DNA from: Paraphysomonas bandaiensis
Lineage: Eukaryota > Protista > Chrysophyceae
DNA: 64,000 nucleotides
Direction: 5' to 3'
NCBI GenBank assembly: GCA_965644295.1
Contig: CBFFRP010000297.1
Location: 930,001 to 994,000, forward strand
Shown here: positions 3,546 through 62,955 of the stretch, piece by piece
How positions within the stretch are numbered: position 1 is the stretch's first letter
Layout of the letters: the number at the start of each line of letters is the position of its first letter
The notes under the pieces: generated by a model
What the model was told of the DNA's origin: nothing
What the model saw: only the letters and a program-made list of their open reading frames with translations
Database searches by the model: none
Program-made: the position numbers and the translations under genes

Positions 3546-3644
3546 TATATATATATGGACAATGCATAGCTTGCAGTATATATATGCATATATTAGTATT
3601 AATATTAATATTTATCGTCTACGTTTTGATTAAGTGAATTCGTC

Positions 3645-41029: not shown

Positions 41030-41180
41030 TTGTATCAGCGTCCTTTGTATATTTTTGTCCAAAAATGTCTCTAATATTGAGATAATAGTTATCTGTATTA
41101 CAGCCGTAGTTGTATCACAGTAATATAGACGATATTTACCTCAATATATTTCCGAAAAATAAGATTCTGACTGCCGATAC
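41030..41180. repeat. Dispersed ~150-bp repeat, copy 4
   Basis: tctctaatattgagataatagttatctgtattacagccgtagttgta...ttccgaaaaataagattctgactgcc. Confidence 0.8.
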
Positions 41181-44724: not shown

Positions 44725-44875
44725 CGTACGGAGTCCTCTGTATATTTTTGTTCAAATATGCCTCTAATATTGAGACAATAATTATCTGTATTCCAGCCGT
44801 AGTTGTATATCAGTAATATCGAGTATATTTGCTTCAATTTATTTCCGAAAAATAAGATGCTGACTGCCAATACGT
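44725..44875. repeat. Dispersed ~150-bp repeat, copy 5
   Basis: tgcctctaatattgagacaataattatctgtattccagccgtagttgta...ttccgaaaaataagatgctgactgccaatacg. Confidence 0.8.
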
Positions 44876-45597: not shown

Positions 45598-45701
45598 CAG
45601 GGCTAGGGAACATTATATTAAATTGCAATATATTGTATTGTAAAATATATTGATTGGTGCACTGGCTAATATTCCATCAATATAGTTTCTGTTAAAGTGG
45701 C
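45598..45701 (+). mobile_element. Left end of a diverged hAT copy, interrupted by the virus
   Basis: CAGGGCTAGGGAACATTATATT...CCATCAATA.GTTTCTGTTAAA aligns with 23788-23905. Confidence 0.85.
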
Positions 45702-45707
45702 TTCCAA

Positions 45708-46206
45708 AAAAAAAAATAGTGATGATGATGGCCGCTCCGCTCGGCATATGGCTTCATTTTAAATAATCCCATATTTCTATACTTTCTTAATTAATCCATA
45801 TTTCTATATCTATTTTAAATAATTCCATATTTCTATACTTTCTTAAATAAATCCATAAATTATTATTATTATTATTAATTTGACATTTTGGCATTGGCAT
45901 TTCAAATAAAATTATAAGAACTAAAATTATAATTCGAGATTAAAGAAAAAAACAATATTATGTCATGCCAAAAATGCCATTTACTTCATCACCATCAATA
46001 GCAGTAGCGTGTATATATCCCATCGCCACACTATGCACACATACTATAAACATACTAGCTACTGCACCAACACTATCTATACAAATCTTCTCTTTAAATA
46101 CTATTGTTATATGAAATGGTTTAAAGAATTATTTTTCATTTTATTTATTTTAATTTAAAAAGCAATTAAAAACACTTAAAGATAATTTGATATATAATAT
46201 TATAAA
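45708..46206 (+). repeat. Left terminal inverted repeat
   Basis: Reverse complement of 62379-62875. I saw one substitution (AATCCC vs AATTCC near 45768) plus a difference in homopolymer length. Confidence 0.97.
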
Positions 46207-46210
46207 GTAA

Positions 46211-46570
46211 ATGAACATTTTCAAAATATTTCTTAATGTCGATTTTAAACTCAAAGATGATGCTAAACTGTTAGGCGCCAAGTGGGATTCAAATATTAAA
46301 TGTTGGTTTGTATACAGTAATCATTTAAATTGCGAAACACTTGTTGAAAAGTTTGGGGAAAATAAAGAAAAAAGGAAGGATTACAATAAACAGTATAGGA
46401 AGCTAAATAAAGAAAAGATAGCTGAATCGAGAAAAATATACAGAGAAAAGAACAAGGACAAGATAAACGAGAAACATAATTGTGAATGTGGTAGTAAATA
46501 TAGAAAGATCGATAAAGCTAGACATATCAGAACAAAGAAACATGTCAAATATATGGAGGCATTGCATTAA
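46211..46570 (+). CDS. Viral protein with a DUF5710-like N-terminus and a C2H2-type zinc finger
   Basis: LNVDFKLKDDAKLLGAKWD...CWFV; CECG...ARHIRTKKH. Confidence 0.7.
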   Translation: MNIFKIFLNVDFKLKDDAKLLGAKWDSNIKCWFVYSNHLNCETLVEKFGENKEKRKDYNKQYRKLNKEKIAESRKIYREKNKDKINEKHNCECGSKYRKIDKARHIRTKKHVKYMEALH

Positions 46571-46710
46571 TTCCTCATTTTTCCATCAGCAACCATTTCA
46601 CAACTTACTTGTAGTATATAGCGGGAAAGCTGTTGTGTTGTCATCATCGCAATATCAGTTAATGACTTTCTAGCCTTCTTACTGGCCTTGCCTACATTGA
46701 TGTCGTCCAT
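46567..46710 (-). CDS. Small viral ORF (47 aa, MDDINVGKASKKARKS...)
   Basis: Read by hand because it is below the ORF track cutoff. It has a TATA-rich upstream motif like the other viral genes and shares the TTAA stop with the facing gene. Confidence 0.5.
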   Translation of the reverse strand: MDDINVGKASKKARKSLTDIAMMTTQQLSRYILQVSCEMVADGKMRN

Positions 46711-46857
46711 ATTCACAATATGTATAATATATAATATGTATGAACTGTCACAACGTTTACAATTGCAAGTATCTTTTGCGATATTTATATATGCATAATT
46801 TATTTTTTCAGTTTTGCAATATCCTGGATATGCTGAATAACTTGGTCAAAACACTAA

Positions 46858-47054
46858 TTTGAGTGAAAACCCCCCTCTGTTCACTCATTTTGAGTGAAAA
46901 CCCCCTCTGTTCACTCTTTTTGAGTGAAAACCCCCCTCGTTTCACTGGTTTTGAGTGACAACACCCCTCTGTTCACTGGTTTTGAGTGAAAACACCCCTC
47001 TGTTCACTGGTTTTGAGTGAAAACACCCCTCTGTTCACTCATTTTGAGTGAAAA
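46858..47054. repeat. Viral palindromic tandem repeat, ~31-bp unit, 6 full copies plus a partial seventh
   Basis: TTTGAGTGAAAAC(A/C)CCCCTCTGTTCACT(CA/GG)T, with an AGTGAA...TTCACT dyad in each unit. Confidence 0.92.
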
Positions 47055-47135
47055 GTACCAATTTCGAGAGAAAACCCATATTTTATTTGTGGAAACCCAT
47101 TTCTGTTTTATAATACAGTAATATATAGAGACAAT

Positions 47136-48080
47136 ATGAAACATTTTTACACAGATGAAACATTTACATACGTTGTGACCACTGCTAATTTAACTTCAGG
47201 AGATAATGGATCCTGCCAGATACCTATGCTCGCCATCCTTCCTAATGATGTTGAGTACTTTATATGTGTTCCCGTATACTTTCAATCAACATCAAATTTA
47301 TTCTCTACTCCTGCTTCAAGCACTGTAGTATTGGAAGCCAAGGACTTTGTTCACACTGGATACTCTACCAATGGTTTAACAGAGTTCAAAGCAGTAACAC
47401 CCCCTTTATTTGGAGCACAGGGATCTCAACCGAGAGTAGGACTTTTTAACACTGTTGACCAAATGCATTACATAGTTAAAAACTTCAATAATAAAACCAT
47501 TCAATTTACATTTCGAAATTGTGAAGGCTTTGAACAGGATTGTGTAGCTCTTGGTGGATGGCTTAAACAATGGATATTGTATTTATCTCTTACTCCAATA
47601 AGAGCAGAAAAACCGCATTATATCATATCAAACATACAAAAATCTTTCACTTATACGATTACCAATAAAGGGGCTGAAGGATCAGTGAATGATTGCTACA
47701 TAACACTTCCTGCAATAAACGATAATTATAATAATTACTTTGTAGATGTTGTAAATTGCAGTGTAAACAGTGATACTTTTAATTTAGCTTCCATGAGATA
47801 TATCAATATATATGCTTTTGACTGGGCTGAAAATGGATACGGTGGATATAATAATAGGACTGATAGAATGATAATATGTAGTCCATTTATGAAATTTGAT
47901 GATGAACCTTCTCTATTCGGTGGAGATTCTGCAGTATTTAAAATATCAAATATGAAAACAAATAGAAGAATTAGATTTAAAATGGAACAAGCAAATATGA
48001 ATGATGTTGACGCATCAGAAGTAGATATCGGTGGAACGTCATATTATTATATAACATGTAAAATAACGCCAATTAACTAG
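47136..48080 (+). CDS. Viral protein with two tandem penton-like (single jelly-roll) domains
   Basis: Internal duplication (FTYVVTTAN...SCQI / FTYTITNK...DCYI; each half ends (L/I)TPI). It parallels the N- and C-terminal strands of the penton at 52801-53538. Confidence 0.6.
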   Translation: MKHFYTDETFTYVVTTANLTSGDNGSCQIPMLAILPNDVEYFICVPVYFQSTSNLFSTPASSTVVLEAKDFVHTGYSTNGLTEFKAVTPPLFGAQGSQPRVGLFNTVDQMHYIVKNFNNKTIQFTFRNCEGFEQDCVALGGWLKQWILYLSLTPIRAEKPHYIISNIQKSFTYTITNKGAEGSVNDCYITLPAINDNYNNYFVDVVNCSVNSDTFNLASMRYINIYAFDWAENGYGGYNNRTDRMIICSPFMKFDDEPSLFGGDSAVFKISNMKTNRRIRFKMEQANMNDVDASEVDIGGTSYYYITCKITPIN

Positions 48081-48105
48081 TAATATTTTCTGTTATAAAT
48101 ATATA

Positions 48106-48561
48106 ATGCAAAATAACAATAGTTTTACATATGTTATTTCATCTGCCAATGCAGTTTCAGGAGATGCTGAAAACTGCTATATAGATTTAGATCCCCTACC
48201 ACATGATTATAACTGGTACTCTGTTCAATGCACAGGATTTATAATGAATTGTGAGTCATTAGCTGTTGGACATCCTCAATATGTTTTATTGGTAGCAGAT
48301 GATTTGGCAGAAGATGGATATTACCAAGGTTTCGATGCCAATCAGTGTGTATTATCATACTTGAATACCGATGATACAGTTTCACAAATGACATCAGGAG
48401 AAGGATCTCAGTTTAAAGTTAAAAATTTTAAACAAAAAAGAAGAATACATTTTAGTTTATATGAACCAGATTTAACACCTATGGCTGGTGTTGTAGATGA
48501 CTCTGCGACAACATACTGGTGTATATCATTGCTGTTTACCCCTATTTTAGATCTGCAGTAA
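48106..48561 (+). CDS. Viral protein with one penton-like domain, paralogous to 47136-48080
   Basis: SFTYVISSAN...NCYIDL...FKVKNFKQKRRIHFSL...WCISLLFTPI. Confidence 0.6.
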   Translation: MQNNNSFTYVISSANAVSGDAENCYIDLDPLPHDYNWYSVQCTGFIMNCESLAVGHPQYVLLVADDLAEDGYYQGFDANQCVLSYLNTDDTVSQMTSGEGSQFKVKNFKQKRRIHFSLYEPDLTPMAGVVDDSATTYWCISLLFTPILDLQ

Positions 48562-50136
48562 ATCTATGTGTGTTTTCCAAAATATTGAACCTGATCCTAC
48601 AGTTTGAAAATCATTATATGTATGAATCTCAAAAGTCCAATTATCTGCAACATCTCCCACAGTAAATATGAGGGGTGCTAGAGTACACCCAACACGGCTT
48701 ACACTTCCACGATTTGCGTCCCATATACCTGGACCATAAAGAGTTGCTCTTTCTAGCGTTCCATTTTTCTTAACTAATACACTCCCGCGTATATCTGTCC
48801 ATGATTTAATACCCATAATATCAAAAGAAACCTGTAACATATATCGACCTTTGTACTGAATGTAACCTGATGAATCAATCATATCGGAATCGCCACCTGT
48901 AGGTGTTGTACTTAGCTCCGATGAAGTCATATAGTGTCCTCCACTAGCTGTCTGATATGTGCTGTTATAAGCCATAGATGTGAAGTATGTTACTGGATCA
49001 TCAGTTTCTTCCCAATAACAGTTTTTTTTACTGGTTAGTGCATCTAAATCCGTTCTGTCAGAAGAAGTGAATGCTGTTGTTTGTAGAGTGGCATCTGGAA
49101 ATTCTATTTTTTGATAACAATTGATGTGATCACATCTTATTTCATCAATTGCTCCCCCTCCATCTGCTTTTAACAATGTATTCGTTGGATAAGTCCATTC
49201 ATTAGATGTTCTTGTAATATCATCTAACAAAGAGCTATAAGTAGAACTAAACGCTTTTGTTTGTTCACTAGCATCTGGAAATTCAATTACTCCACTTGTT
49301 CCTGTAACTTCTAATCTGCAACTATTTCCAGTTAATCTTAAAGTACTCCCTGTTCCTGAGACACTATGTAAAGCATATGCTTTATTCAATAACAAATCAC
49401 TTGTTATAGTTAAATCGTCAAAACCTCCACCAACATAAGATAAAGGTGTTATAGTTGATTCAATAGTTGCAATGTCAGATGTATTGGTTGCTATATTTGA
49501 TGTGTTAGTAGATATGTTTGTTGTGTTGGTAGATATGTTTGATGTATTGGTTGCTATATTTGATGTGTTAGTAGATATGTTTGATGTGTTGGTAGATATG
49601 TTTGATGTGTTAGTAGATATGTCAGTGGTATTAGTGGATATATTAGTTTCCGCTGTTGAGAGATCTACATCAATACTAGCAATGTCTGCCGTATTAGTGG
49701 ATATATTAGTTGCATTTGTAGATATGTCAGTGGCATTAGTTGCGATATTAGTTGTATTTGTAGATATATTAATTTCCGCTGTTGAGAGATCTACATCAAT
49801 ACTAGCAATGTCTGCCGTATTAGTGGATATATTAGTTGCATTAGTGGATATATTAGTTGCATTTGTAGTCATTTGAGTTTGTGCGTTTGAAGTGAGTCCA
49901 TCAATATAACTTAGCTCAACATCTGTGATGGTAGTTCCATTTGCGACAATACTAGCCCCTGATTGCATTGTAATATCAGTATCAATAATAATGTTACTTG
50001 TTTCAAGTGTATCTAAATAAATATTATCACTTGTTAGACTGCCAGTTGTTATTTCATCGGCTTTTATTGTTTGTAAACCATTCAAAGACGGTATGTTTAA
50101 TGATGTATAACCATTGTTCATAATATCGTTATACAT
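48547..50136 (-). CDS. Putative fibre/spike (receptor-binding) protein
   Basis: Long NISTNT(S/A) heptad coiled-coil, two IEFPDA(S/T)xQTxAF motifs typical of viral fibres, and a beta-rich C-terminal head. Confidence 0.75.
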   Translation of the reverse strand: MYNDIMNNGYTSLNIPSLNGLQTIKADEITTGSLTSDNIYLDTLETSNIIIDTDITMQSGASIVANGTTITDVELSYIDGLTSNAQTQMTTNATNISTNATNISTNTADIASIDVDLSTAEINISTNTTNIATNATDISTNATNISTNTADIASIDVDLSTAETNISTNTTDISTNTSNISTNTSNISTNTSNIATNTSNISTNTTNISTNTSNIATNTSDIATIESTITPLSYVGGGFDDLTITSDLLLNKAYALHSVSGTGSTLRLTGNSCRLEVTGTSGVIEFPDASEQTKAFSSTYSSLLDDITRTSNEWTYPTNTLLKADGGGAIDEIRCDHINCYQKIEFPDATLQTTAFTSSDRTDLDALTSKKNCYWEETDDPVTYFTSMAYNSTYQTASGGHYMTSSELSTTPTGGDSDMIDSSGYIQYKGRYMLQVSFDIMGIKSWTDIRGSVLVKKNGTLERATLYGPGIWDANRGSVSRVGCTLAPLIFTVGDVADNWTFEIHTYNDFQTVGSGSIFWKTHIDLLQI

Positions 50137-50171
50137 TATAATTAGAAATTTAAAAAGTGTATTTATTTATC

Positions 50172-51587
50172 TCAGAATTGGATGTATGCAATTCCAGATT
50201 CGCATACCATAACGGCGTCATACATAGCATAAGTATCAAATCTAACGGATGGAGTGGTGGCATTAGCATTAAAACTCATGTGCCAGAACACATCATCATT
50301 AGATGTATTATATCCTGAGTAGATAGAATCTTTGTCTGCATTTGAATAAGTTTCAAGATCCATACCAACAATGAAACTTTCGGAACTAGCGTTATCAGTA
50401 ACGTAAGCTTCTGTTTCATCATTAACAACTGGTACATCTACATCATAATCACCTAAATCGATATTAGGTTCATGATTGATATCAGACACACTACCAATAG
50501 CTTTTATAGCTTCAATGAAAAACTCTGGAACAGTTTCTGGAGCCTTAGAAGGAACAACCTTAGAGCCCAATCTCAATGTATACGATGCTAAATTATAATG
50601 ACATGATGACATAGGAAAGTATGTTATAGCACCATCTGCTTTTTCTCTTTGTGTCATAAATAGAGACTTCAAGCTGTTAAATTTAGCTGGCACTGGTATA
50701 CTTACTTGCGTCGATGCGTTTGCCAGTGTTGCATTATATACATAGTTTCTCCATGCTGGCACTACCCACTCTAATCTTCCACCAGGAGCGGAATTATTAA
50801 TAATACTCATTGCTTCACTTCCAAGTTCCATAAATTGAGCAACAAATTCGCAGTTGTTTACTTTAAATGATGACAAAGCGAGTTCAGAACATAAAAACTT
50901 TGATGGAGATGAAACTAATTGAAGTTCTAATCTAAGAGGTGCTGATGTCATTGCAAATAGCGGAATGTATTTGTCAGAGAGAGATCCAACAATTGAGAGC
51001 AAGTTAATGGTGTAAGTTCTAGTAAGAGTATCACCACCCGCCGCGATATCTGCAAACTGTGTAGTCTGTGCGTCATCGATAAGTCTTTCACCTGAGTTAA
51101 TTGTAAAAACTTGGTTGGTTGCCCCTTGAATTTTTGTTAACAATGTACCTGCATCGGCTACTGTTGAATCAGTAACATCACAGTAGCTATCTCTACATAA
51201 GCCTGCCATTACATTAAGTTTTCCCTTTACAGAATCACCTGATTGTTGCAATGACATTAGCGTCCCTACAAGGTTACCGTAGTTATCTATATCTTCAAGA
51301 AGTTGGGATCCGTGATATAGTCTTAGTCTTTGGATGCATCCATGAGCCCCTGCTCTGTCTAATCTTACATATGCATTGGCACCTGCTCCATTAGTTACCG
51401 TCAAATCAAATTTCAAGAGTGATTCGGAACCAGCCATAACCAAATTTTGAGATGTAGGGATATTGATTATAATAGTCTGCCCATCTGTGTAGTTTCCAAC
51501 GCCATTCAAAGGTTGTACGTGAGTGCTAAAGTTGCGTGCGTAAGCGCTCGATCGCTTATTTTCGTATTTTAGATTTCTAGGGATCAT
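50172..51587 (-). CDS. Major capsid protein, double jelly-roll, PLV type
   Basis: 471 aa. QP.NG..Y..GQTIIINIP, IQRLRLYHGSQLLEDIDNYG, IPLFAM..PLRLELQL and FIVGMDLE..SG.NT. Located in a module with the penton and ATPase. Confidence 0.88.
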   Translation of the reverse strand: MIPRNLKYENKRSSAYARNFSTHVQPLNGVGNYTDGQTIIINIPTSQNLVMAGSESLLKFDLTVTNGAGANAYVRLDRAGAHGCIQRLRLYHGSQLLEDIDNYGNLVGTLMSLQQSGDSVKGKLNVMAGLCRDSYCDVTDSTVADAGTLLTKIQGATNQVFTINSGERLIDDAQTTQFADIAAGGDTLTRTYTINLLSIVGSLSDKYIPLFAMTSAPLRLELQLVSSPSKFLCSELALSSFKVNNCEFVAQFMELGSEAMSIINNSAPGGRLEWVVPAWRNYVYNATLANASTQVSIPVPAKFNSLKSLFMTQREKADGAITYFPMSSCHYNLASYTLRLGSKVVPSKAPETVPEFFIEAIKAIGSVSDINHEPNIDLGDYDVDVPVVNDETEAYVTDNASSESFIVGMDLETYSNADKDSIYSGYNTSNDDVFWHMSFNANATTPSVRFDTYAMYDAVMVCESGIAYIQF

Positions 51588-51646
51588 AATAGTTATATAT
51601 TATATGGATAAAATAATTATCTATATAATTTCAAAATAAATGCGTT

Positions 51647-52262
51647 TTACACTGTGTTGTTATTCATGTATTCTATATGTTTTTTGGTTTTAATATGTTT
51701 ATGCATAGAATCTCTTCGCATAACTTGACCACAAGTACAGGTAACTTCTTGAGCACATCGTTTTTCATATGGTTCTTTTTTTATCTTTTCTGGGTTCTTT
51801 TATTCCCTTATGTTTGTTTGTTTTCAGATGTTTGTGAATAGAATCTCTTCGCATTACAAGGCCACAAGTACAGGTAACTTCTTCAGCACGACGTTTATTA
51901 TTGGCGTCCTTTCTGTCCTGTCTTTGATTCCTTATACGTTCGTATTCCTTTTTACTCTCCGCGGTATGAACAACGTTTTTGATTTTATTAACACAATCGT
52001 TATTTTGGATGTAGTACCCTTCTCTTGCATGAAGTTCATCTTTGCTGTCACACGGATAGTTTTCTACTAAATAAATGGCACAGTTGGGTTCATCAAGTAT
52101 TTTAAAGGATGAAATGTAGTGATCTTTTCCTTTTTTGTAACCATTATAGTTGTTGCGATGCTTTGCCAATCTTCTGGCTAATGTAGGCTCACATGTTGAT
52201 CCGTAATATGTTTTACCACCTCCAACAATTTTGTAAATTTTACCTTTCTGATAATCAGGCAT
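51647..52262 (-). CDS. GIY-YIG endonuclease with two C-terminal zinc fingers; the second lies beyond a frameshift in an A7 run (51776-51782)
   Basis: GKIYKI...YYGST...RLAKH...ELHAREGYYI. CTCG..MRRDS.HKH.KT.KH occurs twice. The uninterrupted ORF is 51765-52262. Confidence 0.85.
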
Positions 52263-52329
52263 ATTCTTTTATACTCTAATATATTCTTATATCTTAAAGT
52301 ATTTTAAATTAAAAATTGACTTAAACAAT

Positions 52330-52773
52330 TTAAGCAAATCCATCGCCGGCTTCATCTGCAGTTGCTTGTTCAATCTTTTTCCTTACGTTAAATTTTTCCA
52401 GATCATTAGCGTGTTTGTTGGCATGTTTAAGAGCTTTGTTACTTGCGTTCTTATATTTGTGTAAAGCTTTATCCCCTTTATCAAGCCCTTTTCTAGCACC
52501 ATGCAATCCTTTACTTGCTAAAGCTATACCATCGCCTACTATCGGGACGCTACCAGCACCAGCGTCAACTGCAGCGCCTAATACTGCATCGGCTATATCA
52601 ACGCCCTTTCTTGCGTTGTGTAATACCTTTGAACCACTGTTAACAACTTTACGGTTAATCTTTTGGGCTTTATCAAGAACATCGTGAGTTTTATGTCCTA
52701 ATTGGTGAGCTTTCTTATCTATTTTCCGCCCTAGTTTTCGGGTAGCACGATCAAACTTCTTACCTAGTTTCAT
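52330..52773 (-). CDS. Basic viral protein with a Gly/Ala-rich amphipathic segment (candidate core or membrane-penetration protein)
   Basis: Lys-rich helices around AVLGAAVDAGAGSVPIVGDGIALA, inside the structural module. Confidence 0.55.
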   Translation of the reverse strand: MKLGKKFDRATRKLGRKIDKKAHQLGHKTHDVLDKAQKINRKVVNSGSKVLHNARKGVDIADAVLGAAVDAGAGSVPIVGDGIALASKGLHGARKGLDKGDKALHKYKNASNKALKHANKHANDLEKFNVRKKIEQATADEAGDGFA

Positions 52774-52800
52774 GTATATAATATATACACTATATTTTAA

Positions 52801-53538
52801 TTATTCTATATCAAGCTCCAGAGTTAAAGAAAAATGAATACCATTCAGATCAAGCACATCATCATCTTGATCAGTAAGCTTGATATGTAAATTTGTTAAA
52901 TTGTGTACATTATAGATCATATTACGAACATTGTATATATTTGAGTAACTGATCATACTGTGATGGGAAGAATCTACAGGTATACTACATAATATGTTGC
53001 TTTTATTAGGAGTAGAATTATTTATATTATTGATTTGAAAGTTATCTGATGTAACATACACATTTCTTATTGTAAACAAATTCAATGATATGGTACTTGT
53101 AAGTACTTGTGACGTTGATGAGTAAGTTGTATCATCATCTGAAAACCCTAGAACCTCAAAACAGGTAGAATCTGCTTCAAATGTGAAATCATATGTGCTA
53201 TGTGAAAAGGTTAATTTGTTTGTTTTACTGTTATATGTTATTGTTAAAGCGGGTATGTCGGTTGTAATAGCTGTCATCAAGGTATTAACATTATAATTCC
53301 CTTCCGTAATTGTTACCGTTTGAACTCCACCACCATTGACAGTATACTTTAATGTATTGTTTATTGAACTGATGTTATAAAACGAGTAGGGTATCATAGC
53401 CGTTTGAACTGAACAAAATATCTTTCTATGTTTTGGAATATTGATGACCGGTAAATAAAAAACACAATCAGATGTATTGCCGTTAATATATTTACTCGCA
53501 GTCTTGCTGTTTAAAAAGAGACATATCTTTTCGCTCAT
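52801..53538 (-). CDS. Minor capsid protein (penton)
   Basis: LFLNS...IPYSFYNI...ITEGNY...LGF...IKLTDQ..VLDLNG.HFSLTLEL pattern of PLV/NCLDV pentons. Confidence 0.85.
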   Translation of the reverse strand: MSEKICLFLNSKTASKYINGNTSDCVFYLPVINIPKHRKIFCSVQTAMIPYSFYNISSINNTLKYTVNGGGVQTVTITEGNYNVNTLMTAITTDIPALTITYNSKTNKLTFSHSTYDFTFEADSTCFEVLGFSDDDTTYSSTSQVLTSTISLNLFTIRNVYVTSDNFQINNINNSTPNKSNILCSIPVDSSHHSMISYSNIYNVRNMIYNVHNLTNLHIKLTDQDDDVLDLNGIHFSLTLELDIE

Positions 53539-53881
53539 CTATACTATTACAATCATATATTTTTCTATTCATCAACTCCTCCAATGGGGAATCACTAATA
53601 TTTTCGGCTATAGCTTCTAATACTTGTTGCCAACCAGGAATGTGAAATCCAGTTCCATGAGGCATATTATCTAACACGTGACGTATACCTCGTCTTTTAA
53701 AAGAATCGTTGTAGTGTAACATATCTATATCTATAACGTCATCAAGTCGTTTTGGTCTGATCATATAATCAAGTTCATCAGGTAGTTCCTCCTCTGAGTC
53801 AGATGATAAATAGAATTGTAAATCTTCATCATATTGCAAAGATAATGAATCATTGTCGGAATCGTATTCTTGAATATCCAT
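53492..53881 (-). CDS. Acidic hypothetical viral protein
   Basis: 129-aa ORF with TATATA directly upstream; sits between the ATPase and penton genes. Confidence 0.6.
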   Translation of the reverse strand: MDIQEYDSDNDSLSLQYDEDLQFYLSSDSEEELPDELDYMIRPKRLDDVIDIDMLHYNDSFKRRGIRHVLDNMPHGTGFHIPGWQQVLEAIAENISDSPLEELMNRKIYDCNSIDERKDMSLFKQQDCE

Positions 53882-53906
53882 TTTTATATAATACTATTCT
53901 ATAAAT

Positions 53907-54638
53907 TTAATTATTGTCAATTACCAGAGTGTTAAAGTTTTTAAACATCTTATTTTCAACTGTATCAACATCCAAATGATTATAGTTTTTATCATATACA
54001 TAATCATACAACTCCACAGCATTATCTTTGGTCATGTTTAATAACTCTGATGTTACAACTGTCCACTCTTGTTGATTTTTGGGCTTAAACAATGTCATAT
54101 TAGTTATTTGCTTTCTTAATGTGAGTGGAAATAAATTGTATGATTGCAAGGTAAATACAAACGCAGTATTTAAATGCCTAGCTTTAATAAGCATTCTGTT
54201 TAAATGTTTAATCAAAACATTGTCTTTTAAATGATTTGCATAATCATCAATTATAACTAAATTATATTCTGGAGGTATTCCCTGTTCAATATTGCTCTCT
54301 TTTAAACCTGCAAGCTCATCATATATTATATCTAATAATTCTGGTGTTAATTCATGATACACCTTTCCATGCTCACTAAATGGATGCTTTTCTACGCTAA
54401 GAAAGCTACTTTGTGGTGTAATCAAGTATATGTTATCAAACTTGGATCTATAAAATCGTGATGACTTAAACATTGACAATAATAAGCTAGTTTTTCCTGA
54501 ACCTCCTGACCCTATCAAAGTATATATAAACCCGTTTCTATGTGGTAAGTGTTCATTGATATTAGGTATGTATACATCCATAACCTCTTTGATTGGGGCT
54601 GTATTAGGCAAATCTGATGGTGATTCTGTTATCTTCAT
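53907..54638 (-). CDS. A32-like (FtsK-HerA) genome packaging ATPase
   Basis: Walker A GSGGSGKT, Walker B VIIDD, ARH arginine finger and LQ....P..LR motif. Confidence 0.92.
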   Translation of the reverse strand: MKITESPSDLPNTAPIKEVMDVYIPNINEHLPHRNGFIYTLIGSGGSGKTSLLLSMFKSSRFYRSKFDNIYLITPQSSFLSVEKHPFSEHGKVYHELTPELLDIIYDELAGLKESNIEQGIPPEYNLVIIDDYANHLKDNVLIKHLNRMLIKARHLNTAFVFTLQSYNLFPLTLRKQITNMTLFKPKNQQEWTVVTSELLNMTKDNAVELYDYVYDKNYNHLDVDTVENKMFKNFNTLVIDNN

Positions 54639-54697
54639 ACTATACTATGAGTGAATATATTATTTTACCAAAGATTTTTTTCTTCGATAACTATATA

Positions 54698-55243
54698 ATG
54701 GTAGAACCCGAAGAATATATAGAAGAATCAATCCCCTTGACGAAACCAAAGAGAGTAGTCAAACAACTTCCCACCATACCTGAGGAATCTGTTAGCACAG
54801 CACCCCCTCAGCCCGCTCCTGTTAAGAAAAAGAGAGTTATGACAAAGCCTAAAACACAAGCTCAACTAGAAGCATTTGAAAAGGCAAGACAAAAGAGAGC
54901 AGAGAATGCAGTAAAGAGGAAACAAGAAAAAGAATTACATTATGCAAAACTATTAGCCCAGCATCAATCAGAAAAACAACCGGAACCAGAACAAGTAGTA
55001 TCGAAGCCAGTTCCTAGACGAGCACCCAGACAAAAGATTATTTATGAAGATTCTGAATCTGAATCTGAACCTGAAATTGTGTATGTAAAGAAACCATCTA
55101 AGAGAAAACCGAAAAAGAAAACAATTGTTATTGAATCATCATCAGAATCAGAATCAGATGATGATAGAACTGTATCAATACAAAGGCAACCAGTTATTCA
55201 AAGACAACAGACACCATTTAATTCAGATGACTATTTTGCATAA
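54698..55243 (+). CDS. Basic/acidic low-complexity viral protein (candidate DNA-binding or core protein)
   Basis: ATG at 54698 after TATATA; KKKRVMTKPKTQAQLEAFEKAR motif and SESE tracts. Confidence 0.7.
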   Translation: MVEPEEYIEESIPLTKPKRVVKQLPTIPEESVSTAPPQPAPVKKKRVMTKPKTQAQLEAFEKARQKRAENAVKRKQEKELHYAKLLAQHQSEKQPEPEQVVSKPVPRRAPRQKIIYEDSESESEPEIVYVKKPSKRKPKKKTIVIESSSESESDDDRTVSIQRQPVIQRQQTPFNSDDYFA

Positions 55244-55272
55244 TATTATCTTTCACTAATATATAAATACTA

Positions 55273-56499
55273 ATGAAGGACAAGAAAATCTATTTATCTC
55301 TTGACGACCTACATAAACTTTATGGAATAGCACCCGATTTAATTCTAAAACGAAAAAAAAATAAAAAGAAACGTAAAGCAAAAGGTAAAAAGAAAAGTAA
55401 TTTTGGTACAGGTGTGAATAAACAATTTGGAGGCGGAGGTGTAGGAGGTGTATCAGGTGTTGGTGCAGTAACCAGCTCAACAATTGATAGAAGAGAAATT
55501 GATATTTTGAGAGGACAACTAAATGAAGCTAAAAACAATCCAAAGAATCCCGCCAATGAGGGAGTGTTAAGACTTGAAAATGTACCAGAAGAGTTGAAAG
55601 AGACTTTGAAATTTGCCAAATTGGCTAACGATGGTTACGCATCTGGAAATGTTAAAGTATCTCAAACTTCAGCAGGTAATTTAATAATGGGTCCAACATC
55701 ACAAAAGCAAAAGACAGCACAAAGAAGAAGAGCTATTGACATATCCAGAAACGTAGATCATACCATCAATCCAGCACCACCAATACCATCCAGAAATGAT
55801 TTGATGCACAAGCAACCATTAGAATTAAAATCAGAATCTGATGATAATAAGGTTGAAGAACTAGATGATGATGAAAAAGAAGATGTTGAAGATATACCAT
55901 TTCCTGCAGAACCTAAAACTAAATTAGTTAGGGTTAAAAAAGTAGGAAGAACGGAAGCACAAGAAGAAGCAATAAAAAGATTAGTTCAATTGAATAAAGA
56001 TAAGAAAAGTGAAAGATTGAACAGAGAAGGTATGGCGAGAGAAGACTATGATGCCGATGATGCCGATAAAATGATTAAAGCAACAAAACACTTTGAACAG
56101 AAACATATGCGTCAAGGATTTGATGGTATATTTGTTCATCATGAGCCGATCACCGGACAAATGAATAGAACGAGACGAACACATATGAATATAGAACAGA
56201 AAGATCAAAAAGAAGATAAAGATATGCACAATTTGAAAAAGAAGCATTATGCCTCAACCCACAAAATCAAGCCACCAAGCACACCGGTGCCTAGTCAATA
56301 CTTCATGAAATCTAATCGAATAGGAATAACAAATTCTAACAGTGACAGTAGTGATGAAGATGATACACCTGTTCGTATTCTACATAGCAAGTCGAAACCA
56401 GTAGGGGTTAGTAGAATCGATCCAAAAAGCACACCAGTGTCAAAATTGGAATTTGGTTGGGGGGATTGGAGCAGTGATAATTCTGATGGATTTGTTTAA
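55273..56499 (+). CDS. Hypothetical viral protein, Lys-rich and low-complexity
   Basis: 408-aa ORF with an NLS-like KRKKNKKKRK and an RTEAQEEAIKR motif similar to the one in the preceding gene. Confidence 0.7.
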   Translation: MKDKKIYLSLDDLHKLYGIAPDLILKRKKNKKKRKAKGKKKSNFGTGVNKQFGGGGVGGVSGVGAVTSSTIDRREIDILRGQLNEAKNNPKNPANEGVLRLENVPEELKETLKFAKLANDGYASGNVKVSQTSAGNLIMGPTSQKQKTAQRRRAIDISRNVDHTINPAPPIPSRNDLMHKQPLELKSESDDNKVEELDDDEKEDVEDIPFPAEPKTKLVRVKKVGRTEAQEEAIKRLVQLNKDKKSERLNREGMAREDYDADDADKMIKATKHFEQKHMRQGFDGIFVHHEPITGQMNRTRRTHMNIEQKDQKEDKDMHNLKKKHYASTHKIKPPSTPVPSQYFMKSNRIGITNSNSDSSDEDDTPVRILHSKSKPVGVSRIDPKSTPVSKLEFGWGDWSSDNSDGFV

Positions 56500-56544
56500 A
56501 CACATATATAAAATATTTAAATATTTTGTGTTGCAATTATATAA

Positions 56545-57036
56545 ATGCGAAGAGTAGTTATTAATAACCCAGACACTCGGCCTCTTGGTGTTGAAGAAGT
56601 AGAGCAAGAGGTAAAACGTGAATGTAGTTTCAGACGCAGATCCATCCCAGACAAAAAACTTTTTAATGTTGAATTAAATGGACTCTCAGACAAAATTAAG
56701 GAAATAAAACTTGAAAACCAACAATATGAACTAGTTACAAAGATTCAAGCTGTTCTAGATCTATTTGATCCTGAATCAAATAAATACAATGAGCAAATTC
56801 TCTTGTTTGCTTGCCAATCGGTTGAAAATTTCATTACCAAGCCAAAATCCGGAGATCGAAAGCTTGCTGTTGTAATTGAAGCTGTTAAAAAGTATTTCAA
56901 TGAGGATATTGAATTGATTGCTAAAATGGTGGAAATATTGCTCCCACGAATTAAGAAAATGAATATTGTTAGACGCAATTGGAAACGTGTGGTCCGTTTT
57001 TTTTGCGGTCTGTCGCAGAACGAGCTGTCGATATAG
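56545..57036 (+). CDS. Hypothetical viral protein
   Basis: 163-aa ORF with TATATAAATG start context. Confidence 0.65.
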   Translation: MRRVVINNPDTRPLGVEEVEQEVKRECSFRRRSIPDKKLFNVELNGLSDKIKEIKLENQQYELVTKIQAVLDLFDPESNKYNEQILLFACQSVENFITKPKSGDRKLAVVIEAVKKYFNEDIELIAKMVEILLPRIKKMNIVRRNWKRVVRFFCGLSQNELSI

Positions 57037-57117
57037 CTGTATCAAAAGCTTTTAAAATGTTACTGTTGCCCATGATCCTTGCCATTTTATAATTTTATTG
57101 ATTATTAATATATAATA

Positions 57118-57414
57118 ATGAATAAAGAAAAAGTTAAACATTACCAACGTACATACTACGTAAAGAATAGGGATAAAATGATTTTGAGAAATAGAATATA
57201 TTACCATGAACACCAAGCACAATGTAATGCAACATCAAAGGCTTGGTATAAAAAGAAAGTAAAGGAATTGAAAGAAAGTGGAGAATATATGGATTTTGTG
57301 AAAGAAAGGAATGCAAAGCAAAGAAAAAGTAGGAAAGTTAAGGGGAGAAATAAACAACGGAATAAGGAATGTTATAAAGTAGATGATGATAGCTTTATAA
57401 TAATATTTAATTAA
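57118..57414 (+). CDS. Small basic viral protein
   Basis: 98 aa with YYxKN/YYHEH/WYKK repeats; TATATA upstream. Confidence 0.6.
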   Translation: MNKEKVKHYQRTYYVKNRDKMILRNRIYYHEHQAQCNATSKAWYKKKVKELKESGEYMDFVKERNAKQRKSRKVKGRNKQRNKECYKVDDDSFIIIFN

Positions 57415-57794
57415 AGATTTTTATGTTTGCTTGAACACTTATGTTTAGTTTTTTGAGATTCAGGGAATGATTCTTGACATCCCCAACAGTACATTAATGG
57501 ATCAGTTTCACGAGCAGGGAGCTGATGCTTCAGCGAGTCGTCTTGTTTAGATTTCTTAATGTCTTCTAATTCTTGTTTAATAATTTCTAATTCGGCTACT
57601 ATATCATTGCGTGGTTGCTTTCGTGAAGCTCTTGATTTACATAAATTTGTTGTTTGATGTTTTTTCATGTTTTGATGTGATACCACTTTACCACATAAAG
57701 AGCATTCTTCTTTCTCAAAAAGTTTAGCACATATCTGTTCTTTCTTTGATGCATAGTATTTTTTGTTATACTCCTTTCTTGATTGAGTATCCAT
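57411..57794 (-). CDS. Zinc-finger viral protein
   Basis: CSLCGK...KKHQTTNLC and CWGC...KHKC motifs. Confidence 0.7.
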   Translation of the reverse strand: MDTQSRKEYNKKYYASKKEQICAKLFEKEECSLCGKVVSHQNMKKHQTTNLCKSRASRKQPRNDIVAELEIIKQELEDIKKSKQDDSLKHQLPARETDPLMYCWGCQESFPESQKTKHKCSSKHKNL

Positions 57795-57878
57795 TATGTA
57801 TATACTATTATATATTAATATATTTTTAAGCCATTTTAATTATTATTATTTATATTTTTATATGTAGCTATTATATAT

Positions 57879-58933
57879 ATGAATGCTTTGATTGATAAAT
57901 ATGGGATCGATGAAACATTGACAAGACCCCTAAAGAAATCAAAAGGTAAAAAGAAGAAGTATAATAGAATTAAGGATAATATTCCATTGAAGGAGGATTA
58001 CAACTTCATGGCTGATGTATTGCACTTGCCAAAGGATAAAAAAGGGTATAGGTACTTGTTAGTTGTGGTGGATTTAGCAACAAATGAATTTGATATGGAA
58101 CCAATGAAAACAGAAGATAGCGAGGAAACATATTATCGGCAATGAAAGCTATATTTAAACGTAAGCATATCAACAAGCCATACGCATCAATAAGGACAGA
58201 TGGTGGTGCTTCATTTAAGAAAAAGGTTCATAAGTACTTAGTTGGGGAGGATATTTTACACAAAACTGGAGTGGCTGGTCGGCATACTCAGAGTAGTGCA
58301 GTGGAGAGTTTGAATAGAACATTGGGTAGATTTTTTAATGGATATATGAATTCTGTAGAATTAGAAACTGGGAAAGTATATCGAGAATGGACGGATATCG
58401 TTGACAGGTTGAGAATAGATTTAAATAAACTTCGCAAGATAGATATTTCACACAATGATCCAGCAAGTGATTTAAAAGCGGTACCAGATATTACTGAACC
58501 TTCTAAATTGAAGGTAGGCGATCTGGTTCACAGAAAATTAGATAAACCCAAAAACGCACTCAATGAAACTCTTAATTCGGACGTGTTCAGAGAAGGCGAT
58601 TTTAGATGGGATCCTATACCTGTCAAGATTACAGAAGTCTTATTCTATGGAGGTGATGTGACATACAGATATATGTTAAGTGGTATTAAAAATGCATCTT
58701 TTACAGAAGATGAACTTTTATTAGCAGAAGATCAAGAAGAAGATGAACAGATTGAAATTAAAAAGATTCTTGATAGAAGATTCTTTGATGGTGAAGATCA
58801 TTACCATGTATGGATGTATGGGGAACTAAAGAAAGATGCTGGATGGTACGCGAAGAGTGATTTAATTAAAACTGGTAATAAGAAGCTATTACAAGATTAC
58901 GATAAAGAATTTAATAAAAAGACAAAGGTTTAA
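57879..58933 (+). pseudogene. Retroviral-type (rve, DDE) integrase with C-terminal chromodomain, split by a frameshift at ~58130
   Basis: ADVLHLP..YLLVVVD in ORF 57879-58145; IRTDGG..F, AVESLNRTL, LKVGDLV and IKKILDRR..YHVWMYG..W in ORF 58142-58933. Removing one TA from ACATATTATCG fuses the two frames. Confidence 0.88.
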
Positions 58934-60117
58934 TCTAAATGTGTATACCCGTTTGCATGTCTCCATTCAATATTACCAGATGTTTTATCTTCTCGTAATA
59001 AATTTGGTATATCTAATTTTGGATCAACCTTGAAAGTAACATTATCCGTATGAATTCTTATCACGTTATCAATATCTTTCAATGCAACTTTAGCAATTGT
59101 GTTTCTAGTTAGGGCCATTAAGAAAGCTTTAATTCTTATTTGATATGAATACGGATTTTCTGTATCTAGAAGTGTATAATAATCTTTTTCTCCATCATGT
59201 TCAACTTTGTGGACAACCCATTTATGTTTTGGAAGTGTACCCCAATCATAACCCTGATCTATTAAATCTTGTTCAGTTTTGCACATTCTATTTCGTTTTG
59301 TAAGATTTCCCCATAGAGATGAGGTGATATGTTTGATTAATTTATTTTTTGGAAAAGCTTCTTTGATAGCAAATAGTTTATCAAACCAAGTTCTGAATAT
59401 ATCATTGCATGAAACCAAATCTTTCTTTTTGTATAAGTATGCGTTTGGCTTGCCATCTTGAAATAATTCAATTTCCACATTAAATTGTTTTTTGTATTTT
59501 AGTGCTTGCTGTAGTGACGAATGTGTATATATATTTCGCGGAGAAAATGCAAATATCTTTCGGAAGTTATTATCATTGCATGTTATTTTTACTCTGTAAT
59601 AACCTGTTTTAAGCTTACGTCTTTTCTTTAATTTCTTTAGAATCTTTTCTTTGCCTGGTTTATTAGGAATCATCATATCACCATAAGCTAATAATCTAGG
59701 GAAAAAACTTGAATAATCATATCCAAATGATTCATATGTACCTGGATCACAAAATGTTAAACCACCATTGAAACAAGCATCAATCCATTTGTTTTCAGTT
59801 TTACCAATCTTCTCATGATCTTCCCATTTGCCTTTACATAATCGTTGAAATGTAAGTTTGACAGCGTTCTCATGAGTCCAATACTTTTTGTAATCAATAC
59901 TAAGAATTTTTAGTTGATTAAATCTAAGTTCTCTACACCATGCTCGAAAATCTTTTGCATATTTCTTGATACCTTCATCAGAACAGTCATATCCTTTGAA
60001 CAAATAATATCGATACTCTAGTTTACAAACTTCTTTGAGTGGCATATCAGACCATGTGTATGGATCGGTGCACATTACTCTATATGTGCCATCAGGTTTT
60101 TTATAGTAAAAATTCAT
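58930..60117 (-). CDS. Minimal family B DNA polymerase (pPolB-related) with no recognisable exonuclease domain
   Basis: FNGG, motif A YDYSSFFP, motif B KHITSSLWG and motif C IHTDNV in only 395 aa. Confidence 0.82.
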   Translation of the reverse strand: MNFYYKKPDGTYRVMCTDPYTWSDMPLKEVCKLEYRYYLFKGYDCSDEGIKKYAKDFRAWCRELRFNQLKILSIDYKKYWTHENAVKLTFQRLCKGKWEDHEKIGKTENKWIDACFNGGLTFCDPGTYESFGYDYSSFFPRLLAYGDMMIPNKPGKEKILKKLKKRRKLKTGYYRVKITCNDNNFRKIFAFSPRNIYTHSSLQQALKYKKQFNVEIELFQDGKPNAYLYKKKDLVSCNDIFRTWFDKLFAIKEAFPKNKLIKHITSSLWGNLTKRNRMCKTEQDLIDQGYDWGTLPKHKWVVHKVEHDGEKDYYTLLDTENPYSYQIRIKAFLMALTRNTIAKVALKDIDNVIRIHTDNVTFKVDPKLDIPNLLREDKTSGNIEWRHANGYTHLD

Positions 60118-60179
60118 TCTAATTATTATATATTTATTATAGATAATTATTTCTTAAGTGTTTTTTATATGCGTTTCAA

Positions 60180-60599
60180 TTAAAAGAAATTATCATCATC
60201 AGAATCAATATCGTCGTCTGGAATAAAGAACATTAGTTGAATTTGATAAAAGTTTTTGAATTTATTAATATCTCCACCATCTTTAACAAAGGACTCATAG
60301 TAATCATCCATATCATCATCGTCTTTAATTTCAGAATTGTATCCTTTAAGTGTATGCATCTTTTCAATGTTCTGAGCTCTGACAACAAATTTAGTACCGG
60401 CTTTTGTTGAGGGGTCTTTCTCTATTGCTGATACCATACCTCTGATATCATCTAAAGTAATTTTGGCTTTTTTATCTTTTCTATATATTTGTATTGTTTT
60501 CCTTTCACCATCTGGTATCTTTTTTGAATCTATTACCTTCTTATTGTAAACAGACTTTGCTTTGGACTGCTTAGATTTTACAGACTTCTTTTTAACCAT
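60180..60599 (-). CDS. Hypothetical viral protein in the replication module
   Basis: 139 aa with a basic N-terminus and acidic C-terminus, between the helicase and PolB genes. Confidence 0.65.
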   Translation of the reverse strand: MVKKKSVKSKQSKAKSVYNKKVIDSKKIPDGERKTIQIYRKDKKAKITLDDIRGMVSAIEKDPSTKAGTKFVVRAQNIEKMHTLKGYNSEIKDDDDMDDYYESFVKDGGDINKFKNFYQIQLMFFIPDDDIDSDDDNFF

Positions 60600-60643
60600 T
60601 ATATAATTATATACTATATAATAATTCCTTAAGTAAATTTTAA

Positions 60644-62374
60644 TTATAATAAATTTAATATATCATTAATATCATCTTTGGTAAAACTTGTATCTTCCGG
60701 TTGTATGAATATATTCTTTTTGAATGTTGGTGGGATAGAATCGCATTCATCATCAGACTCGTATTCATAAGTTACCTTTCTAACTTTTTTATGTTTAGAT
60801 GGATTGCATTGTTGTGCTTCTTGAAGTTGCTGTTTGAGGCTTTCAATTTCTGCTTTAGCATCATCTAGTTTATTTTCTAATTGTACCATATAATCAGTGA
60901 TATGATTTTCTTTAACACCATTTCCAACTAGCTTCTTAATTTTCAATTTAATATGTGTAAAGCATCCTCGTACGCCATCAACCCGTGAACTTGGGTTGTA
61001 GATTAAACCTTTGTCTTTTAAAGAAGTTATTATTTGAACCATAGATAAATGCTTATCTGGATACGCCTTTTTAAAATACATTTCCATATCAGATTTGCTT
61101 ATTCTATCACTTGATTTATCTGACTGACAAAAATGGCCATCTACAAAATCTTGCATAACATCATTTGTGTTCAATACTGAATCTTTTGTTTCGGTAAAGT
61201 TTTTATTGAACTTTGGTTTTTCTCCTTTAGACCACTTGTAACAATATTTTGCCAAAATATCAAACCATGCGTTTAAGAGACCACCCTTGACTATCTTATC
61301 CAATAAATATTTATCTTTGAGATAAATGTGATTTGATTCATCCACTTCATTGGGTTTATCCACAAATGTGCTTCCATGGGTATAACCTCTAAATCTTCTG
61401 ACAACACCAGTATCAACTTTAATACCTATCATAGTATTAGCAGTGATGAAAGGTTTTGAGTTGTGAGTAATATCGTGAGATTCATCTTCATATAATTTAG
61501 TAGTTTGCAATTTACCTTCACAGAACTTTTTAAACAGTGTTTCATCAATCTTGACATCTTTGATTTCGTTTATCCAAGTAATTCTTATTTGAGGATTGTT
61601 AGCAAAAGTATTTAAGATCTTGTCAATTTTACTGTTGTTCTGACTGAATGTATCGTTTTTGAGTTCCTTGAAATAACATTCGAATGCTTTCTGTGATAAT
61701 TCCATTATGAAAGATTTTCCCGCAGAAGCTTTTCCTAAGAGAAACAATGTATCTTGATCAACATTAGACTTACCACTAAGGGAAGATCCAAGAGTTAGAA
61801 GTACACATTTCATATCTTCATTATCGGGGTAAATCTTTCTAATATGTGCCATCATCTCTTCTCTCTCTTCTTCGGATGATTTAACGTAATCTCTGTGTAT
61901 ATATTGAGTTATGTAATGCTGGTGTAATTTTCTTTGCCTAAATTTCTTGTGTAGAAGATCATAGTAACCATTGTTAAAATGTATCTCATATGGAGTATCA
62001 TTAAATAGTACATCGTTCGTATCTAGCATGGTAATAATTTGATTATAATACGTTTCAACCATTGCATTTTGAAACATCTTAGGGAATGTTTTAACATTTT
62101 TGTATTTCAACAGTTGTTGCTGATCCTCACTTAAAGCTTGGTAAGACTTTTGTATATAACTTGTGATTATTGTCATTAGTTTTGCTTTGCTCATGCTCAA
62201 TGGCAATGCGGTGTAAGTTAAGTTATTATTAATGATGTACAATAAATGTTTACTGATAAAGCAATAATTCCGAAGTCCTTTGACTATAGTGGAAGCTTTG
62301 TCGTTGGGGTATTGAGAGGTTGCAAGAAGATCTATATCATCTGAGTTCATTAAATCGGAATTCTTAAAATTCAT
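60644..62374 (-). CDS. Superfamily 3 (D5-like) helicase
   Basis: D5_N-like IHFNNGYYDL, Walker A GKASAGKS, Walker B WINE and motif C ITAN. ATG at 62374. No primase motifs recognised. Confidence 0.88.
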   Translation of the reverse strand: MNFKNSDLMNSDDIDLLATSQYPNDKASTIVKGLRNYCFISKHLLYIINNNLTYTALPLSMSKAKLMTIITSYIQKSYQALSEDQQQLLKYKNVKTFPKMFQNAMVETYYNQIITMLDTNDVLFNDTPYEIHFNNGYYDLLHKKFRQRKLHQHYITQYIHRDYVKSSEEEREEMMAHIRKIYPDNEDMKCVLLTLGSSLSGKSNVDQDTLFLLGKASAGKSFIMELSQKAFECYFKELKNDTFSQNNSKIDKILNTFANNPQIRITWINEIKDVKIDETLFKKFCEGKLQTTKLYEDESHDITHNSKPFITANTMIGIKVDTGVVRRFRGYTHGSTFVDKPNEVDESNHIYLKDKYLLDKIVKGGLLNAWFDILAKYCYKWSKGEKPKFNKNFTETKDSVLNTNDVMQDFVDGHFCQSDKSSDRISKSDMEMYFKKAYPDKHLSMVQIITSLKDKGLIYNPSSRVDGVRGCFTHIKLKIKKLVGNGVKENHITDYMVQLENKLDDAKAEIESLKQQLQEAQQCNPSKHKKVRKVTYEYESDDECDSIPPTFKKNIFIQPEDTSFTKDDINDILNLL

Positions 62375-62378
62375 TTCG

Positions 62379-62875
62379 TTTATAATATTATATATCAAAT
62401 TATCTTTAAGTGTTTTTAATTGCTTTTTAAATTAAAATAAATAAAATGAAAAATAATTCTTTAAACCATTTCATATAACAATAGTATTTAAAGAGAAGAT
62501 TTGTATAGATAGTGTTGGTGCAGTAGCTAGTATGTTTATAGTATGTGTGCATAGTGTGGCGATGGGATATATACACGCTACTGCTATTGATGGTGATGAA
62601 GTAAATGGCATTTTTGGCATGACATAATATTGTTTTTTTCTTTAATCTCGAATTATAATTTTAGTTCTTATAATTTTATTTGAAATGCCAATGCCAAAAT
62701 GTCAAATTAATAATAATAATAATAATTTATGGATTTATTTAAGAAAGTATAGAAATATGGAATTATTTAAAATAGATATAGAAATATGGATTAATTAAGA
62801 AAGTATAGAAATATGGAATTATTTAAAATGAAGCCATATGCCGAGCGGAGCGGCCATCATCATCACTATTTTTTT
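62379..62875 (-). repeat. Right terminal inverted repeat
   Basis: Reverse complement of 45708-46206. Confidence 0.97.
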
Positions 62876-62881
62876 TTCCAA

Positions 62882-62955
62882 GCTCACAATAGTATTGCAC
62901 TCAATATTATGATAGTCAAATACGAAAAGATTCTTAACTCTAGGGCGCATAATGC
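62882..62955 (+). mobile_element. Continuation of the interrupted hAT copy
   Basis: ACAATAGTATTGCACTCAATATTATGATAGTCA..AGATTCTTAACTCTAGGGCGCA aligns with ~23912-23985. Confidence 0.8.

Follow-up and report, generated by a model that had tools for sequence, protein, structure and literature searches.

A full-length Polinton-like virus in the genome of Paraphysomonas bandaiensis, with a short polymerase and a conserved small partner gene

What kind of virus lies at positions 45708-62875 of a 64,000-nucleotide stretch of the Paraphysomonas bandaiensis genome (contig CBFFRP010000297.1, 930,001 to 994,000; hereafter the window), is it still intact, and how would it copy its DNA? An earlier note, made from the sequence alone, described the element as a complete, recently integrated Polinton-like virus (PLV) with an unusual gene set. 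The element is a full-length and young insertion with a broken integrase gene, and much of its gene set has known counterparts. What looks new, and was absent from the earlier note, is a split replication layout: a family-B DNA polymerase (PolB) without the terminal protein (TP)-vOTU region, accompanied by a separate conserved small gene.

The insertion and its broken integrase

The element is bounded by terminal inverted repeats (TIRs) of 499 bp (45708-46206, plus strand, and 62379-62877, minus strand) with a single mismatch (45768/62817), and a perfect direct repeat, the target-site duplication (TSD), stands on both sides. Because both element ends are poly-A/T runs, the TSD can be read as TTCCAA (6 bp, at 45702-45707 and 62876-62881, plus strand; element 45708-62875, right TIR ending at 62875), TCCAA (5 bp) or CCAA (4 bp; symmetric ends 45708-62877). 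With one mismatch in 499 bp and a perfect TSD, the insertion is young, and the TIRs differing by about one substitution and the TSD had been noticed correctly. The flanks at 45598-45707 and 62887-62963 match two halves of one host repeat, of which an uninterrupted copy lies at 23788-23999 with 7 bases between the two flank matches; this is therefore the pattern of a true insertion. The intact copy of the interrupted repeat occupies 23788-24590 and is made of CAATATATTG units, inverted copies included.

The guanine-plus-cytosine (GC) content is 32.4% in the element and 40.1% and 41.6% in the flanks. The length of 17.2 kb, the 499-bp TIRs and the 4-6-bp TSD fit the range of PLVs (14-40 kb, with TIRs, and with a TSD when rve is encoded). 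Twenty open reading frames (ORFs) starting with ATG, 88-576 amino acids (aa) long, occupy 14,839 of 17,170 bp (86%). The earlier count of about 20 tightly packed, intronless ORFs holds, except that two overlapping ones belong to the integrase. No further virus pieces were found elsewhere in the window. Since both TIRs stop 4 nt ahead of an ATG, one opening the helicase ORF and the other a DUF5710 ORF, a single TIR-borne promoter likely drives both genes; the left TIR, which contains 28-bp sub-repeats, likely carries that of the first ORF. An enrichment of TATATA upstream of 12 of 19 genes was measured against a mostly coding background, so no promoter motif is proposed from it.

The element has its full length but is not entirely intact, because a frameshift splits its integrase (57879-58933, plus strand) into two overlapping ORFs, 57879-58145 (88 aa) and 58142-58933 (263 aa). 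The first fragment matches rve in Pfam (E 5e-4). Comparisons were made with 84 fetched loci; among the relatives that carry L-numbers here, L059, L091/L032, L088/L093 and L049 are IMG/VR elements. In L059 the integrase is one open gene (367 aa); the window aligns to it in two frames, which change over near 58122-58130, between catalytic aspartates 1 and 2. The break is real, because contigs from two separate studies carry the same frameshift: X5 (57549-58690, one other letter different, no gap) and X8 (57771-58302, no difference). The X3 contig over this region contains a single gap at a position that the listing does not give, and no X9 piece is listed over the site. One of the runs could be the one from which the window was assembled. 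Programmed frameshifting was considered and rejected, given that the break has no slippery heptamer and that three relatives (L059, L049 and L088) have one open gene. The integrase of L091 is truncated as well. A C-terminal chromodomain is likely, judging from the relatives L049 and L088, which match Chromo (E 4e-5 and 2e-3); the corresponding region of the window has no Pfam match of its own. Thus, the rve domain proposed earlier is present in a frameshifted gene, the chromodomain is carried by relatives' matches, and the copy is not functionally complete. The capsid and replication genes are open, as had been stated.

A short polymerase and its small neighbour

The helicase (576 aa, 60644-62374, minus strand) is a stand-alone D5/SF3 protein that matches D5_N in Pfam (E 3e-4) and a PHROG family over the helicase part only (E 1e-17), which agrees with its first assignment. 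No primase domain was detected in it, and no primase was found among the 20 ORFs with Pfam or PHROGs.

The polymerase (395 aa, 58930-60117, minus strand) has no Pfam match of its own, and 1 of 67 family members matches DNA_pol_B_2. Its earlier designation as a small PolB is carried by the family: all 67 aligned proteins keep D134 (motif A), K262, S266 and G270 (motif B) and D358 (motif C). The spacing between motifs would leave room for TPR1 and TPR2. The family numbers 162 of the 1,818 candidates, which were limited to 217-692 aa, the size range that the survey of extensions covered; the median is 410 aa among the best 120. In 113 of these 120 the profile start is the protein start (median extension 0); five are extended by more than 60 aa, and Pfam marks NUMOD4 or DUF5710 in two of these. 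In L049 a fused polymerase of 695 aa matches the profile over residues 353-662 (probability 99.8). Because homologs mostly start at the profile and this alignment covers only 353-662, the short form is, on these alignments, a conserved rather than a decayed one, without exonuclease and TP-vOTU region. The N-terminal part of the L049 polymerase has a Cys...His pattern that we take to be vOTU-like. One relative of the short polymerase comes from the chrysophyte Epipyxis. The polymerase alignment profile gave nothing useful against PDB sequences, and scans of viral contigs with this alignment, the helicase and the L049 and L059 polymerases returned no new loci. A degenerate motif-B pattern found seven stretches, four of which encode short polymerases (three distinct elements, one previously fetched) and three of which do not.

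Directly upstream of the short polymerase lies a conserved gene for a 139-aa protein (60180-60599, minus strand), a candidate stand-alone TP. Homologs occupy this slot in three other elements: one of 109 aa in L059 (the reciprocal best match in a set of 1,679 ORFs, z 5.3, 0 of 1,000 shuffles), one of 124 aa in L091, which shares a contig with L032 (E 9e-11), and one of 111 aa in L088/L093 (leave-one-out E 5e-7 in a set of 1,813 ORFs). The order helicase, small gene, polymerase and convergent integrase is kept in all four distinct elements with a short polymerase, and one Tyr of the small protein is invariant among them. In L049, the fused 695-aa polymerase replaces the small gene and the short polymerase, and the slot of the 139-aa gene is the place of the N-terminal extension. 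No primase is encoded; therefore, a primer is needed. The published picture of PRD1-like TPs is of a sheet of about four strands, two helices, a linking residue (Ser or Tyr) ahead of the final strand, and sequences that resemble each other little (PMC11161782). The case that the 139-aa protein is a separate TP that primes replication is about evenly balanced.

The same four-gene cassette accompanies the same capsid family in L059 and L091/L032 (42-43% identity in the major capsid protein, MCP). L088/L093 share the cassette but have an unrelated ATPase, and no MCP of the window family occurs in the fetched part. By sequence, the cassette spans at least two packaging lineages. The gene set of L088/L093 differs otherwise as well, its capsid gene lies outside the fetched part, and the element is presumably virophage-like. 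Full-text searches gave no paper that, in its listing or in the passages covered, describes such a split layout for PLVs or virophages.

Capsid module, relatives and remaining genes

The 471-aa MCP (50172-51587, minus strand) was modelled as a double jelly-roll from an alignment-based prediction, used in place of a single-sequence one with a mean confidence (pLDDT) of 29; the fold accords with the first assignment. So does the Pfam match of the 243-aa A32-type packaging ATPase (53907-54638, minus strand; Pox_A32, E 4e-12; 61 of 84 loci). The neighbouring 245-aa protein (52801-53538, minus strand; DUF5901, E 1e-6) is a likely penton or minor capsid protein, judging from its position and its conservation beside the MCP in 72 of 84 loci. 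The 529-aa fibre-like protein (48547-50136, minus strand) has heptad (21-bp) repeats and PHROG matches to minor head and tail needle proteins. Both names had been proposed before and stay putative, as neither is shown by fold. Core genes occur together in 61-82 of the 84 loci. The earlier note recognised no adenain-type protease or tyrosine recombinase, and neither a protease nor such a recombinase was found among the 20 ORFs with Pfam and PHROGs; a motif scan added no cysteine (adenain/Ulp1-type) protease, although a highly divergent one is still possible.

This reduced morphogenetic module without cysteine protease matches Aquintoviricetes of the TVS/TsV kind and is described as typical of the class as a whole (PMC12220804). 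Among the 50 BFVD rows listed for the MCP, the one of highest identity is an uncharacterised protein of Tetraselmis viridis virus S1 (TvV-S1; 22%, next 15%), the exemplar of this class (PMC12451622). By eye, the MCP motifs and the neighbouring Lys/Glu-rich genes resemble GKSPLV13, whose BLAST hit is given as TVSG_00021 of TvV-S1 and whose cluster has no group label in the table (PMC7805220). The element is quite probably a TVS/TsV-type member. The MCP tree, a quick one without named references, gives no group placement. The MCP is not of the virophage type (Virophaviricetes: mavirus, Sputnik), and the element has neither the cysteine maturation protease nor the full protein-primed PolB (pPolB; TP, vOTU and exonuclease) of Polintoviricetes. 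At E<=1e-10 the capsid profile matches 1,384 clusters (50% identity); this and the likeness to the TVS group make the proposal of an undescribed lineage doubtful at group level. Protein atlas matches of the MCP are viral capsid clusters without a name. The MCP and ATPase had no match in phage records, the MCP alignment profile found nothing useful among PDB sequences, and motif and identifier searches in the supplements of PMC10120064 and PMC7805220 found no close MCP relative. Two fetched loci deserve separate mention. L010/L011 is a 32-kb contig carrying the same virus twice in inverted orientation, possibly an assembly artefact or a replication dimer. L049 has its MCP gene in two ORFs (96 and 439 aa; 8863-10702) with an insertion of about 0.4 kb and is otherwise complete with TIRs.

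With TVS/TsV-type PLVs the element shares a linear genome of 15-20 kb, TIRs, a double jelly-roll MCP, a putative penton-like gene, an A32 ATPase, a putative fibre and the lack of a protease. However, it is only distantly similar to named isolates, and GKSPLV13 has a 1,104-aa full pPolB (PMC7805220). With mavirus and pMVRE group 1, it shares an exonuclease-less pPolB, a stand-alone SF3 helicase, an rve-chromodomain integrase (frameshifted here), a GIY-YIG gene and TIRs; the polymerase and separate helicase are the mavirus layout (PMC11161782), and the combination of pPolB, SF3 helicase, rve, chromodomain and GIY-YIG is that given for pMVRE group 1 (PMC13215967). Unlike the mavirus pPolB, a single chain of TP, vOTU and palm, the window polymerase has no such N-terminal region and has a separate small gene upstream (PMC11161782); the capsid type and the lack of a cysteine protease also set the element apart from mavirus. 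The published description of endogenous PLVs in the chrysophyte Ochromonas danica is similar: GC is about 30%, the genes number about 23, the TIRs measure around 600 bp and are 99% identical, the TSDs are of 4-5 bp, and the polymerases flank the mavirus clade (PMC12220804). Polintons or Mavericks (Polintoviricetes) and Gosseviruses share a pPolB, an rve integrase, TIRs and a TSD, whereas the window element lacks a cysteine protease and an exonuclease domain and has a stand-alone SF3 helicase. The mavirus-like part of the gene set (pPolB type, SF3, rve, chromodomain) is thus already known; with the absence of a protease expected for Aquintoviricetes and the mavirus-like polymerases of O. danica PLVs, the unusual gene set claimed earlier is not supported in that form.

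The remaining ORFs begin at the left TIR with a 119-aa ORF in which a DUF5710 domain (Pfam E 2e-11) precedes a basic tail (46211-46570, plus strand). Between it and a non-coding array (46858-47054), in which a 31-bp unit is repeated 6.4 times, a 47-codon ORF was read by eye (46570-46711, minus strand). Two paralogous ORFs follow on the plus strand, of 314 aa (47136-48080), likely a small virion protein, and 151 aa (48106-48561), with homologs in three fetched loci. Within the capsid region lie three minus-strand ORFs. The first encodes a 165-aa GIY-YIG-like endonuclease (51765-52262), a label taken from its motif and from visual resemblance to an annotated entry of PMC7805220, with no Pfam match; the others are a 147-aa basic conserved ORF (52330-52773; homologs in 23 of 84 loci) and a 129-aa acidic conserved ORF (53492-53881; 43 of 84). 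The central plus-strand genes are a 208-aa Lys/Glu-rich conserved ORF (54617-55243; 60 of 84 loci, a count that low complexity may inflate), a 408-aa low-complexity basic/acidic ORF (55273-56499), a 163-aa conserved ORF (56545-57036; 28 of 84) and a 98-aa basic ORF (57118-57414). A 127-aa ORF with two Cys/His zinc-finger-like motifs (57411-57794, minus strand) precedes the integrase.

Several features of the surrounding host DNA were also recorded. A delta-COP exon is 100% identical to a protein in MMETSP and EukProt, and the nearest matches with a displayed name are from Paraphysomonas (65%), Mallomonas (59%) and Ectocarpus (58%); with the Epipyxis relative of the polymerase, this points to an ochrophyte host, likely a chrysophyte. 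A 23-bp satellite at 16779-21954 has 227 copies and 26% GC. A 140-bp dispersed host repeat (44733-44874, 41040-41180, 36453-36604, 29852-29971 and 3406-3526) has very high summed depth in all four sequencing runs and is possibly a miniature inverted-repeat transposable element or a solo terminal repeat. An intronless gene at 32027-33316 (minus strand) carries a 29-aa (87-bp) unit repeated about 11 times, presumably ankyrin-like. Long intron-poor ORFs of 885, 490 and 442 aa stand amid intron-containing host genes at 5341-7998 (minus strand) and 9164-11930. A near-identical pair of ORF fragments at 28745-29452 and 36893-37336, with a second shared ORF nearby, may be a duplicated segment or a transposon remnant.

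Life cycle and competing explanations

Contigs from four runs of four studies cover the element and its left flank. Summed depth over the replication end (59225-62360) is near that of the host flank in all four runs (117-120 against 95-109 in X5; 23-35 against 32-55 in X3). Over 47831-55426 variant letters are frequent, and the sum climbs to 749-3,638 for X5 and 99-756 for X3. Such sums over contigs do not count copies, but they hint that each genome has about one copy of this replication module alongside many related capsid modules. For a query that was half host sequence, RNA runs shared a fraction of 0.07-0.28 of its words, which is no evidence of expression.

The explanation considered moderately probable is that a full-length PLV sits in a host repeat, its integrase frameshifted but its genes for capsid, packaging and replication open, and likely stays silent until a giant virus co-infects the cell. 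An intact rve integrase would have inserted the linear genome, which would then lie silent in the chromosome until a co-infecting giant virus induces it. The SF3 helicase would unwind the DNA, and the palm-only polymerase would copy it from the TIR ends by strand displacement, with the 139-aa protein as its primer at about even odds. If that protein is a separate TP, the vOTU protease, which in mavirus releases the TP, would become dispensable. Packaging would fall to the ATPase, MCP, penton and fibre, with no maturation protease, and renewed insertion of this copy would require the integrase of a sister element. By analogy, helper dependence is likely because the replication architecture is of the mavirus type (PMC11161782), such elements are reported to correlate with giant viruses (PMC13215967), and a giant virus is reported to reactivate endogenous TsV-like PLVs in Tetraselmis (10.1101/2025.10.09.676808).

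Some observations count against this explanation. The TSD is not pinned to one length, no contig piece among those listed crosses the host-element junction, and the group placement leans on by-eye motif likeness and on the TvV-S1 Foldseek row of 22% identity, which ranks 32 by E-value with a template modelling score of 0.39, the four best rows being nameless. Furthermore, TsV-N1, of the same broad group, is reported to replicate without a helper (10.64898/2026.06.19.733378; PMC12220804). The element could likewise be an autonomous nuclear virus that uses host transcription, excises under stress and lyses its host without a giant virus. It likely shares the broad capsid group of TsV-N1, described as a nuclear lytic virus (10.64898/2026.06.19.733378), and encodes its own polymerase, helicase and capsid genes. 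However, autonomy seems unlikely given a replication module of the mavirus kind and close relatives of TsV that are described as strictly dependent on giant viruses (10.1101/2025.10.09.676808). A dead-end provirus, with the integrase break as early decay, this copy stuck in the chromosome and only sister copies active, would account for a frameshift within the catalytic core that lacks a slippery heptamer and is gapless in the X5 and X8 contigs, and for the truncated L091 integrase. It is nevertheless rather unlikely: the remaining 18 ORFs are open, with lengths like those of relatives where relatives were found, the TIRs differ at one position, and variant capsid-module contigs at far higher summed depth, which is no copy number, hint at complementing sister elements. 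An assembly artefact that fused a free virus contig to host DNA would explain why no contig piece among those listed crosses a junction, and PLV frameshifts and joins are said to be often assembly errors (PMC10120064); yet the perfect TSD, flanks that are two halves of one host repeat and a replication-module depth near that of the host flank in every run render it very improbable.

A further alternative touches the priming step only and is compatible with the other explanations. The 139-aa gene may encode an accessory factor for DNA binding, helicase loading or processivity, with priming by a primase of the helper virus or host. Its likelihood falls just short of even. Consistent with an accessory role, and counting against a TP, no statistical link was seen between the N-terminal region of the L049 fusion polymerase and the small gene: the small-gene profile misses that region in hmmsearch (absent at E<=50), hhalign ranks the pair 60 of 109 (40 of 98 in another comparison) and pairwise z is 0.3-1.4. 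Nor did the profile find anything below E 0.13 in the PDB, or the protein a usable match in the protein atlas. On the other side stand the slot equal to the L049 extension, the presence of the gene with its invariant Tyr in all four short-polymerase elements, the lack of an encoded primase and the general lack of sequence similarity among TPs (PMC11161782). A predicted complex of the polymerase and the small protein scored 0.00, without alignments and with an uncertain partner fold, and counts neither way.

As a provirus, this PLV is one among thousands in protist genomes; its value lies in the replication cassette. Somewhat tentatively, the four genes may form a mobile cassette common to PLVs and a second capsid lineage, in which the mavirus-type TP-vOTU-polymerase polyprotein was split into a TP and a palm-only polymerase and the protease was lost. 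Such a split would restore the two-gene arrangement of PRD1-like systems, and no protein-primed replicase of a eukaryotic virus would be smaller. If the small gene encodes a TP, a protease-free branch would be added to the scheme described for eukaryotic pPolBs, in which the primer is a cleaved N-terminus (PMC11161782). Many capsid modules beside a single replication module would be a hinted case of module swapping (10.64898/2026.10.13.758929). If the split reading is true, a 395-aa polymerase and a 139-aa primer would constitute an unusually small and testable protein-priming system that Pfam scans have missed, in a culturable protist host that allows induction and assay.

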